A model generated the notes under the pieces. It searched no databases. It had not been told where the DNA came from and saw only the letters and a list, made by a program, of their open reading frames with translations. Positions 1-25,903 of a DNA stretch of 64,000 bases are shown here, in pieces (the first letter of the stretch is position 1; every line of letters starts with the position of its first letter). This DNA comes from a virus: positions 25,823 to 89,822 of IMG/VR virus record IMGVR_UViG_3300037507_005588, one strand, 5' to 3'. A program made the translations under genes and the position numbers.

Positions 1-128
1 GACTATAAGTGGTAAATATTTGTTGGTCTTACTACCCAAAATATATTTGATGAGGGTGTAGTAGTCTAGCCCAAGTGTATGTGGATGTTGTTTTACAAAC
101 TCGTTTTTCATGTCAATATTTTTCTGAA

Positions 129-1151
129 TTATAGTTCAGTTGTTTCGTTATTCAAAATTATTTTTTCACCTTTGTTGATAACCTCGTTTACTCTATTCTG
201 AGGTTGATTTTCATATCCCCAAGTTTCCTTTACACCATCTCTAATAATGTGGTCAGCCCTCATTAGTGAGTGTAACTCACAATATTTGGTTTCTTTAATA
301 CCATTCTTAACCGTTTGAACTACTTCTCGTAATCGATGATGTTCTTCCTGTTTGGTTTCTTTAACCCCATTTTTTATTATATCATCAAATCTTTCATCGC
401 CATCTAACCAATCACCATATTCAGTATGTTTCACCCCCTTTTCAAGGACATCTTTAACTGAAGGACGATTCTGATTCCATTGGTCAATGGTTACTTTAAT
501 CCCATTTTGAATGACCTCTTCCATAGCAAGACCGTCCTCGAAGGGATTGTGTTCGGTCTCTTTCACCCCATTTTGAATAGTATCTTCAATTGTTAAAAGT
601 GAGTGGAATGTCATTTCTCGGGTGTGTTTCACTACATTTTGAATGGTGTCTTCAACAGTTGGTCTACGCAAGTCAACATCACCCCAGGTGTATATCACCC
701 CATTTTGAATGGTATCTCCAACCTCAAGGTGTTGCTCACTCTCATCAGCAACGGTGTATATCACCCCATTTTGAATGGTATCTCCAACGCGCGAACCAAT
801 GTTTAAGAAGCGGGGGTCGGTGTATATCACCCCATTTTGAATGGTATCTCCAACCAAAAGAGATTCCCGCGTGTACCCTCCTTGGGTGCGTTTTACCCCA
901 TTTTGGATGAAATTCTCAACCCATTTGGTTATATGGTGCTGATTCTCAATCACATCCAAAGAAATGATTTTGAATATTTTTTCAAAAAAATAATAATTAT
1001 ACCACAGGGTTCCTGTTTTTGTGAGTTCAAAAATCCATTTCTTTTCATCGGTAAAAATTAACCACCGACTACTATGATTGATATATGTGTCAGCACCTTT
1101 GACCTTTTTATCAATCATTTTTTCTAAAAGTTCGTAGATGTCCCGTTTCAT
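129..1151 (-). CDS. Phage protein with N-terminal globular domain and 12 in-frame 22-aa units (12-aa repeat + 10-aa variable segment)
   Basis: ORF; start moved to ATG 1151 (MKRDIYELL) because TATATTTG lies 5 nt upstream and the longer ORF overlaps tRNA-Ser; repeat consensus V(G/E)DTIQNGV(I/K)xT. Confidence 0.8.
   Translation of the reverse strand: MKRDIYELLEKMIDKKVKGADTYINHSSRWLIFTDEKKWIFELTKTGTLWYNYYFFEKIFKIISLDVIENQHHITKWVENFIQNGVKRTQGGYTRESLLVGDTIQNGVIYTDPRFLNIGSRVGDTIQNGVIYTVADESEQHLEVGDTIQNGVIYTWGDVDLRRPTVEDTIQNVVKHTREMTFHSLLTIEDTIQNGVKETEHNPFEDGLAMEEVIQNGIKVTIDQWNQNRPSVKDVLEKGVKHTEYGDWLDGDERFDDIIKNGVKETKQEEHHRLREVVQTVKNGIKETKYCELHSLMRADHIIRDGVKETWGYENQPQNRVNEVINKGEKIILNNETTEL
156..920 (+). 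CRISPR. CRISPR-like array inside a CDS: 36-bp repeats, 30-bp unique spacers, type VI-B-like repeat
   Basis: GGTGTATATCACCCCATTTTGAATGGTATCTCCAAC identical at 687-722, 753-788, 819-854; degenerate copies start at 885, 621, 555, 489, 423, 354, 288, 222, 156; period 66 bp (one 69); no cas genes in window. Confidence 0.55.
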
Positions 1152-1197
1152 AACACCAAATATACAAACTAAATTGTTATGAAACAAATAAATTCTG

Positions 1198-20156: not shown

Positions 20157-20187
20157 TTTGACATGTAAAATAAATTTTATAACTTTG
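20157..20187 (+). promoter_or_regulatory. Bacteroidota-type sigma-A promoter for leader peptide/tRNA operon
   Basis: TTTG 20157-20160, 19-nt spacer, TAACTTTG 20180-20187. Confidence 0.75.
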
Positions 20188-25332: not shown

Positions 25333-25404
25333 TTTGGAAATTAGAATACTTATTGTATCTTTGTAGGGTTGAAACGGGGATAACACCCCGAAGGTCTTTG
25401 AAAT
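25333..25404 (+). promoter_or_regulatory. Promoter, boxB-like hairpin and boxA-like element of tRNA cluster
   Basis: TTTG 25333, TATCTTTG 25356-25363; CGGGG-ATAACA-CCCCG 25375-25390; GGTCTTTGAAAT 25393-25404. Confidence 0.6.
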
Positions 25405-25753: not shown

Positions 25754-25903
25754 GGTTGGTAGTACAAAGCGTAGGTTGACAGACTGAGAGAGCAGTTCGC
25801 AAGGGTACACACTAAGAATTCTATTTCTCTCTAATGGTGTGTGAAGTTAGGCCATTCCGAGGTTGCTAAACGGGATTCCTGATAAAGTCAACTACTACCA
25901 ACC
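25754..25903 (+). ncRNA. Candidate multi-stem structured ncRNA of unknown family
   Basis: 11-bp closing stem GGTTGGTAGTA/TACTACCAACC, GTTGAC/GTCAAC, internal hairpins, trailing T run. Confidence 0.55.

Follow-up and report, generated by a model that had tools for sequence, protein, structure and literature searches.

In the 64,000-nucleotide (nt) stretch of viral DNA analyzed here (the window; positions 25,823 to 89,822 of IMG/VR record IMGVR_UViG_3300037507_005588), a single minus-strand open reading frame (ORF; 129-1151, 340 amino acids (aa), start ATG at 1151) holds an entire array of 36-nt repeats and intervening segments that resembles a CRISPR array. We find that this ORF is a translated gene selected as a protein and that whole units of the array are gained, lost, and swapped between phages at the 36-nt constant blocks. 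As to where new units come from, the reading that we judge best, at a probability of roughly 0.45, is a ruler-type insertion that duplicates the repeat in the manner of CRISPR adaptation, with recombination and selection acting afterward; mutation and recombination alone rank close behind it.

A translated gene whose units are exchanged between phages

An earlier note on this DNA had described twelve 36-nt repeats that stay in frame with the segments between them, and this geometry held on recomputation: successive blocks start 66 nt apart, a single pair being 69 nt apart, and the segments between them are 30 nt long, except for one of 33 nt (390-422). Blocks 687, 753, and 819 (named by their + strand starts; Table 1) are mutually identical at 36/36 positions, the first block (885-920) is unlike these three, and degeneration of the blocks increases toward the C-terminus, all as the note had it. 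The GC contents that it gave for the four segments closest to the 5′ end of the gene were likewise reproduced (0.53, 0.57, 0.50, and 0.50, i.e., 15-17/30), in surrounding DNA that is AT-rich (GC ~0.31-0.35). Tandem Repeats Finder reported no repeat for the array, because only the 36-nt part is common to the units.

That the array is a phage gene translated in frame, as had been proposed, is borne out by its homologues, its open frame, the confident fold of its N-terminal domain, a promoter motif of host type, and the codon positions at which its blocks differ. A homologue search returned >2,400 proteins of 190-590 aa, in each of which one and the same N-terminal domain precedes a varying number of units; the N-domain alone forms 293 clusters at 50% identity and is N-terminal in every case. 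The differences among the twelve blocks were distributed over codon positions 1, 2, and 3 as 254/182/392, so that the codon-position test suggested in the note gave a clear excess at position 3, and cassettes held in common with distant loci differed by 15 synonymous versus 9 non-synonymous codons. Searches of Pfam, PHROGs, and NCBIfam with the repeat protein gave nothing significant, and the ESM Atlas yielded no usable match. A tblastn match to a Bacillus tape-measure protein (E 5e-4, 22% identity) was set aside as low-complexity or periodic.

Using AlphaFold2 (AF2), we obtained a model of the N-domain with a predicted local distance difference test (pLDDT) score >90 over about residues 10-85, showing an alpha-beta4-alpha2 fold for which no match was found (Foldseek E ≥1; VIA-align Z ≤4.7). 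The full-length model had low confidence (pLDDT 46.6) and was for this reason used for secondary structure only; in it, every constant block forms a beta-hairpin centered on the invariant Asn-Gly. Each unit would, on this model, consist of a constant 12-residue predicted beta-hairpin (VEDTIQ-NG-VKET) and a free loop of ~10 residues. Across the family, information content in the 10-residue segments does not exceed 0.22 bit at any position, so that they show no positional constraint and behave like free loops. Given the constant hairpins, the unconstrained loops, and the fast turnover of units, our guess is that the protein may be a scaffold that shows many variable loops to host molecules.

The exchange of units became apparent from a set of 202 distinct family genes with 2,072 variable segments. 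The constant block of the family reads [VI]-[ED]-D-[TVI]-I-[QEK]-N-G-[VI]-K-x-T, and 55% of the segments are exactly 10 aa long, with a further 20% at 11 aa. Of the 434 cassette clusters in these genes, 199 are confined to one gene and 43 occur in at least 10 genes. The segments of the window, which the note had called unique, are for the most part nothing of the kind: 10 of the 11 turn up again in homologues, conserved as peptides and differing in order and number from gene to gene, and DPRFLNIGSR (789-818) is the sole one without a relative. Identical cassettes, often 100% identical at the DNA level, occur in genes with N-domains of different lineages. A particularly close comparison is offered by sister locus L093: its upstream flank and N-domain (1,873 nt) match the window at 95.9% identity, and its downstream sequence does so at 88.7%. 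The two arrays have their last six units in common, in the same order, and the first four units of L093 are unrelated to the first five of the window; several of these lineage-specific units are present in other lineages and were thus imported, not made locally. Among six close relatives, whose neighboring genes are 72-100% identical, the number of variable segments ranges from 3 to 11. In the comparison with homologues that the note had put forward as a check, ten segments are shared, diverge mainly at silent sites, and are shuffled by recombination, and novelty is concentrated at the N-proximal end.

Contigs of four lake-water runs contained the window array letter for letter, including the orphan unit, as well as many sister cassettes; no dated gain of a unit was found among them. 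On two sister phage contigs (L007 and L008), a second family gene is present at ~1200-1650 on the - strand, opposite in strand to the first gene and ~2.4 kb upstream of it, and this second gene has cassettes in common with other genes.

Footprint of young units and likeness to CRISPR repeats

The strict 30-nt segment length is found at the young (N-proximal) end of the arrays only. At unit position 1, 88% of the segments in the 202 genes are exactly 10 aa long and 30% are rare, as compared to 28-50% and about 9-13%, respectively, near the C-terminus. Codon adaptation declines steadily with the rarity of a cassette, from 0.20 for cassettes in at least 20 genes (0.18 for a null of ordinary phage genes) to 0.00 for orphans, and 30% of the orphans versus 1% of the common cassettes fall below the 5% quantile of the null. 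Rare codons that are rich in GC (CGC, GGC, and CCG, for instance) mark the cassettes with the poorest adaptation, and yet all 94 family loci have a GC content of 28-36%. Upon comparing cassettes at matched positions (2-5), we found flanking blocks of at least 34/36 identity around 26% of the orphans versus 2-4% of the common cassettes, which is the trace expected from duplication of a repeat at insertion. The constant block itself holds rare codons across the family (GGG 57%, GTG 65%, ACC 60-89%; background 9-17%), and the blocks beside the N-domain are the most uniform, the most consensus-like, and the most CRISPR-repeat-like. An RNA hairpin failed as the cause of these rare codons, with weak T/A versus A/T covariation (odds ratio ~1.5); the third bases of Gly8 and Thr12 are associated, but this association is confounded by block age.

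The cleanest single case is unit 789-818 (DPRFLNIGSR), which has the look of foreign-like DNA newly inserted, as a 66-nt piece, between identical repeats. The peptide was absent from the homologue searches (~5.8 billion proteins indexed, shared 5-residue words) and from IMG/VR, and its neighbor units are directly adjacent in the close relatives P0003, P0005, and P0014. With 57% GC and two CGC codons (CGC usage is 2% in the phage), it ranks as the 6th least adapted of 309. Separately, the first variable segment of locus L014, RNGFESRPIS, is GC-rich and poorly codon-adapted, and contains a GGATTTGAATCC stretch resembling a tRNA T-arm.

The repeat bears some resemblance to those of type VI-B (Cas13b) arrays, for which a 36-nt length, a 5′-GUUG end, a CAAC-3′ end, and a loop of poly-U have been published (10.1101/092577); the + strand block of the window reads GGUG...UUUU...CAAC. 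For the Bergeyella Cas13b repeat, given in the note as an approximately 22/36 match, we turned to B. zoohelcum ATCC 43767 and took the array adjoining its Cas13b gene, which was verified with NF038190 (838.8 bits); the match to this real repeat was exactly 22/36. To avoid selection bias, eight Cas13b-adjacent repeats were gathered through Cas13b genes alone, independent of the window. The best of these eight independent repeats matched the window repeat at 25/36 and the family consensus at 23/36. As a null for the same eight repeats, the best match in the rest of the window (125,710 positions) was 23/36; in the flanks of sister loci (117,124 positions), one 25/36 match was seen, and one of the 24/36 matches proved to be a second family gene. 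Judged from these sequence counts, the likeness to VI-B repeats that the note had pointed out, and that extends to their geometry, appears real and rare, at ~1e-5 per position, but not overwhelming. By tblastn, the window protein also matched the translation of a true Cas13b array (E 2e-5).

A pattern built from the window repeat matched genuine arrays with a 66-nt period in many Bacteroidota, including Bergeyella zoohelcum. The most similar repeat, in Parapedobacter soli (L023, 5000-7200), is 29/36 identical to that of the window, a value that is biased because the search pattern was built from the window; a second repeat family is mixed in at this locus, and the 29/36 repeat lacks a Cas13b-like fold. 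We rejected the locus as a family gene, as it is degenerate, out of frame, located beside a TnpB-like ORF, and without the N-domain. On a contig of an uncultured Flavobacteriaceae metagenome-assembled genome (L019, 3600-6400), four mini-arrays of 2-4 repeats each, with a 36-nt Cas13b-like repeat, all open with the same 30-nt first spacer and are interspersed with a weakly OrfB_IS605-like (TnpB-like) ORF and an ORF with a bPH_2 domain; in one mini-array, the antisense frame stays open over 126 aa, giving VENTIQKVVVPN plus 10 variable residues. At a Flavobacteriales Cas13b locus (L088, 50-900), composite units with a period of ~118 nt lie beside a normal array, with half-repeats flanking a conserved insert.

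Weighing insertion against other explanations

The length, codon-adaptation, flanking-block, and rare-codon results and the case of unit 789-818, taken together, fit a ruler-type insertion. In such a process, ~30 nt of non-native DNA would be inserted by a ruler-type mechanism, with duplication of the adjacent 36-nt block. Inserts free of stop codons would survive and be kept as peptide loops, after which they would slowly adapt to the codon usage of the phage and spread via homologous recombination. The most plausible agent would be host Cas1-Cas2, acting on a repeat that is like the 36-nt CRISPR repeats of the host phylum. In the most novel version, to which we give somewhat less than even odds, a host CRISPR integrase (a Cas1-Cas2 that uses a 36-nt ruler, like those of Bacteroidota II-C/VI-B pairs) may take the repeat of the gene for a CRISPR repeat during infection and insert foreign, probably bacterial, 30-nt pieces, duplicating the repeat. 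Because 66 nt equals 22 codons, each capture would write a new 10-residue loop into the phage protein. According to PMC6698737, the sequence and spacing of repeats can suffice to guide Cas1-Cas2, and in F. columnare, type II-C machinery acts in trans to fill VI-B arrays (PMC8092290; cited alongside 10.1101/092577).

A number of results weigh against insertion. Searches for the sources of young segments gave no protospacer in the phage's own record, in two complete sister genomes (queried with the segments of their own family genes), in INPHARED and PLSDB (50,697 phage genomes and 72,556 plasmids; megablast), or in IMG/VR (exact match for four segments and a back-translated peptide for one). 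Only chance-level matches were seen in 401 Bacteroidota genomes, in 400 genomes from the genus of Flavobacterium silvisoli, and in 378 genomes from the order of Parapedobacter soli, samples that make up a small share of the possible hosts; a 23/25 match (25 nt) of segment 1 to one of the Bacteroidota (G329) is no more than chance would give among 401 genomes. Neither Cas1 nor Cas13b nor a reverse transcriptase was found in the 89.8-kb record or the two complete sister genomes. The idea that foreign fragments are inserted, as put forward in the note, is supported by the freshly inserted look of unit 789-818; host Cas1-Cas2 is a putative agent, with no protospacer in the searched collections and no cas gene in the two sister genomes.

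Further such points come from the array itself. The level of repeat similarity is reached once in the ~240,000 null positions. In VI-B arrays, the variable leader end lies upstream in crRNA (CRISPR RNA) orientation (PMC8092290), and the B. zoohelcum array has its degenerate repeats at the transcription-distal end; in the window, the degenerate blocks lie at the 5′ end of the repeat-like strand, which places the variable end opposite to that of real VI-B arrays. The strictly polar gain of units that the note had expected did not hold up: close relatives differ by internal units, and the first block is unlike blocks 2-4, so that the latest duplication in the window was internal rather than at a leader junction. 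The footprint statistics have a small n (23 orphans for flanking blocks, 40 for codon adaptation). Averaged over the family, rare cassettes have an ordinary GC at third codon positions (GC3) of 0.32, and cassette pairs are in excess at 5-9/10 matches, with 143 to 165 pairs per level, as in gradual divergence.

The strongest alternative is an ordinary hypervariable repeat protein, the new loops of which would arise solely from point mutations exposed to diversifying selection and from homologous recombination, i.e., unequal crossover and gene conversion between near-identical 36-nt blocks of co-infecting phages, with no integrase at work today. The 36+30 geometry and the likeness to CRISPR repeats would then be chance, or at most the fossil of an ancient captured array. 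We take this to be a serious contender, somewhat short of even odds. Constant scaffold blocks and shared cassettes in differing orders, the marks of a cassette-shuffled hypervariable repeat protein, are both found here, and the identical cassettes in different lineages, the mosaic differences between phages that are 96% identical, the gain and loss of internal units, and the gradual divergence of cassettes, mostly at silent sites, all speak for it, as does the absence of protospacers and cas genes from the searched collections and genomes. The rare codons kept in the block and its N-terminal uniformity are expected from concerted evolution in a recombination hot zone, the consensus block is just 23/36 identical to the best Cas13b repeat, and a 22-residue period is also known in viral FNIP-type leucine-rich repeats (PMC9525666). 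Mutation and recombination alone do, however, leave unexplained the GC-rich rare codons in the youngest cassettes, as the sampled loci are all at 28-36% GC and mutation there is AT-biased, and the same holds for the orphans between near-identical blocks at matched positions and for the confinement of the strict 30 nt to the young end. Such an origin must also accept a repeat similarity of p ~1e-5 along with exact CRISPR geometry in a phage of an array-owning phylum, and has to contend with 182 of 467 distinct 10-residue segments that have no relative above 4/10.

The note had further suggested that antisense RNA may supply host Cas13b with crRNAs or decoys. In such a role, the + strand RNA of the array would act much like RNA anti-CRISPRs (Racrs), which are known repeat mimics in phages (PMC10651486). 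The + strand block does have the CAAC 3′ end, the U-run, and the 36-nt length of VI-B repeats, and a Bacteroidota-type promoter motif at 19-49 (+), within the downstream gene, is aimed into the array. Yet, in the fold of true Cas13b repeats (-8.6 to -11.2 kcal/mol), a terminal GUUG/CAAC stem is combined with an inner stem and a U-rich loop, whereas the window repeat forms two tiny local hairpins only (-6.8 kcal/mol, z -0.75), and a consensus-like block barely folds (-1.9 kcal/mol). The Rfam CRISPR-DR family gave no match at E up to 10, and the third codon positions of the blocks vary freely. Moreover, the blocks closest to the 19-49 (+) promoter are the most degenerate (10-16/36), and silent changes disrupt its motif in two (L095 and L167) of the five distinct sequences from relatives. 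From the fold and Rfam results, together with the variable end on the wrong side and the lack of cas genes in the two complete sister genomes, we conclude that the array is not a guide-RNA array or repeat decoy, and a crRNA or decoy function is essentially excluded. A diversity-generating retroelement, or a comparable system that hypermutates the variable segments in a targeted way, would suit variation that is limited to defined segments between constant blocks, but this explanation is close to refuted, as the phage's own record and the two complete sister genomes contain neither a reverse transcriptase (RVT_1) nor a template or second array copy elsewhere, and as the segments are mutually unrelated rather than adenine-specific variants of a template.

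The phage, and comparison with known systems

The array gene belongs to an uncultured freshwater (lake) jumbo phage, the host of which is probably a member of the Bacteroidota. The source record is 89.8 kb long with a CheckV completeness of 30%, and sister contigs reach up to 295-309 kb. The Bacteroidota-type promoter motif TTTG-N16-22-TAnnTTTG occurs 25 times in the window versus 4.8 expected (e.g., at 20157-20187 + and 25333-25363 +, and upstream of the array gene; Table 1), an excess that supports a Bacteroidota host. The window holds 25 tRNA genes, among them two tRNA-Ser genes (1197-1283 and 1325-1413, both -) directly upstream of the array gene. A 4HBT-family thioesterase of 131 aa (1463-1858, -) is 100% identical in protein sequence to its counterparts in L093 and L095, despite arrays in these two loci that are strongly unlike that of the window. 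The neighboring genes (the thioesterase, an unknown 424-aa protein, and the two tRNA-Ser genes) gave no functional clue, and synteny around the array gene is kept in the closest lineage only.

Table 1. Features of the array gene and its upstream region in window coordinates; for each of the twelve 36-nt constant blocks, the first coordinate is its + strand start.
Feature	Position	Strand	Basis
ORF, 340 aa: N-terminal domain, then 12 units of 22 aa (constant 12 aa + variable ~10 aa)	129..1151	-	
Promoter motif of Bacteroidota type (TTTG-N-TAnnTTTG), its end 6 nt upstream of the ATG	1157..1188	-	motif count
Conserved N-terminal domain, aa 1-77, fold alpha-beta4-alpha2	921..1151	-	AF2 + homologue clusters
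Constant block 1, VENFIQNGVKRT, unlike blocks 2-4	885..920	-	
Variable segment 1, QGGYTRESLL, GC 0.53, common to close relatives only	855..884	-	
Constant block 2, VGDTIQNGVIYT, same as blocks 3 and 4	819..854	-	
Variable segment 2, DPRFLNIGSR, orphan insert, GC 0.57, GC3 0.70, two CGC codons, flanking blocks 36/36 identical	789..818	-	
Constant block 3, VGDTIQNGVIYT	753..788	-	
Variable segment 3, VADESEQHLE, recurring in genes with other N-domain lineages	723..752	-	
Constant block 4, VGDTIQNGVIYT	687..722	-	
Variable segment 4, WGDVDLRRPT, identical copy in 7 other proteins	657..686	-	
Constant block 5, VEDTIQNVVKHT	621..656	-	
Variable segment 5, REMTFHSLLT, elsewhere only in distant homologue P0040	591..620	-	
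Constant block 6, IEDTIQNGVKET, near family consensus	555..590	-	
Variable segment 6, EHNPFEDGLA, common cassette	525..554	-	
Constant block 7, MEEVIQNGIKVT	489..524	-	
Variable segment 7, IDQWNQNRPS, common cassette	459..488	-	
Constant block 8, VKDVLEKGVKHT	423..458	-	
Variable segment 8 (33 nt), EYGDWLDGDER, in 148/202 family genes; 35/36 nt identity to L002 (36 nt compared)	390..422	-	
Constant block 9, FDDIIKNGVKET	354..389	-	
Variable segment 9, KQEEHHRLRE, common cassette with diverged relatives	324..353	-	
Constant block 10, VVQTVKNGIKET, degenerate	288..323	-	
Variable segment 10, KYCELHSLMR, common cassette	258..287	-	
Constant block 11, ADHIIRDGVKET, degenerate	222..257	-	
Variable segment 11, WGYENQPQNR, common C-terminal cassette	192..221	-	
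Constant block 12, VNEVINKGEKII, most degenerate of the twelve	156..191	-	
C-terminal tail and stop codon, after block 12	129..155	-	

If new units do arise by insertion, CRISPR adaptation, or a look-alike ruler integrase, would gain a second use in writing random peptides into a translated viral gene. This would add a new route to protein diversity beside diversity-generating retroelements and cassette recombination, and it would open an unexpected path for DNA from host to phage. In the literature, we found no paper on a translated CRISPR-type array. Even with recombination alone, the gene represents a large family (>2,400 members, lake jumbo phages) that is undescribed in Pfam, PHROGs, and NCBIfam, and the unit architecture, the polar turnover, and the silent-site conservation of the scaffold need explaining. 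A fixed hairpin with free loops could, furthermore, serve as a natural display scaffold.

Among known systems, Racrs (solitary repeat units and mini-arrays; PMC10651486) are comparable in that a phage sequence resembles the CRISPR repeat of the host phylum. Racrs are small non-coding RNAs that mimic the structure of the repeat, whereas the repeat-like strand of the present phage is antisense to a gene, lacks the repeat fold, and drifts at silent sites. A viral protein of many 22-residue units is also known in the FNIP/IP22 leucine-rich repeats (LRRs) of Cafeteria roenbergensis virus (CroV588, PDB 6NYR; PMC9525666), and the profile match of the phage protein to these sums to E 1.3e-12. The individual matched stretches are, however, insignificant (i-E 0.25-4.3); the FNIP unit (LxxLxFGxxFNQxIxENVLPxx) is conserved over its full length, whereas 10 of the 22 phage positions are unconstrained; and the low-confidence AF2 model of the phage protein shows hairpins, not an LRR turn. 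With periodic and individually insignificant matches only, we did not assign the phage protein to FNIP/IP22.

Also comparable are cassette-based antigenic variation and mosaic repeat proteins, such as the pilE/pilS mini-cassettes of Neisseria and the choline-binding hairpin repeats. There, as here, constant stretches act as swap sites, and a hairpin plus loop displays variable surfaces. The phages differ in that they have no silent donor locus, with one gene per genome at the DNA level (two complete genomes), in that their cassette pool is common to different phages, and in that the young cassettes look foreign in codon usage.

Type VI-B arrays, lastly, have in common with the phage array the lengths of repeat (36 nt), insert (30 nt), and period (66 nt), a variable end opposite a decaying one, and fresh units between identical repeats; the phage repeat, with its U-run and its CAAC end, is 22-25/36 identical to real Cas13b repeats. 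The phage array departs from them in being read as protein on the opposite strand and selected as such. Its repeat is without the Cas13b repeat fold, its variable end lies on the other side, and it comes without a leader, cas genes in the phage, or a protospacer found; most of its inserts are old peptide cassettes that are shared among phages.

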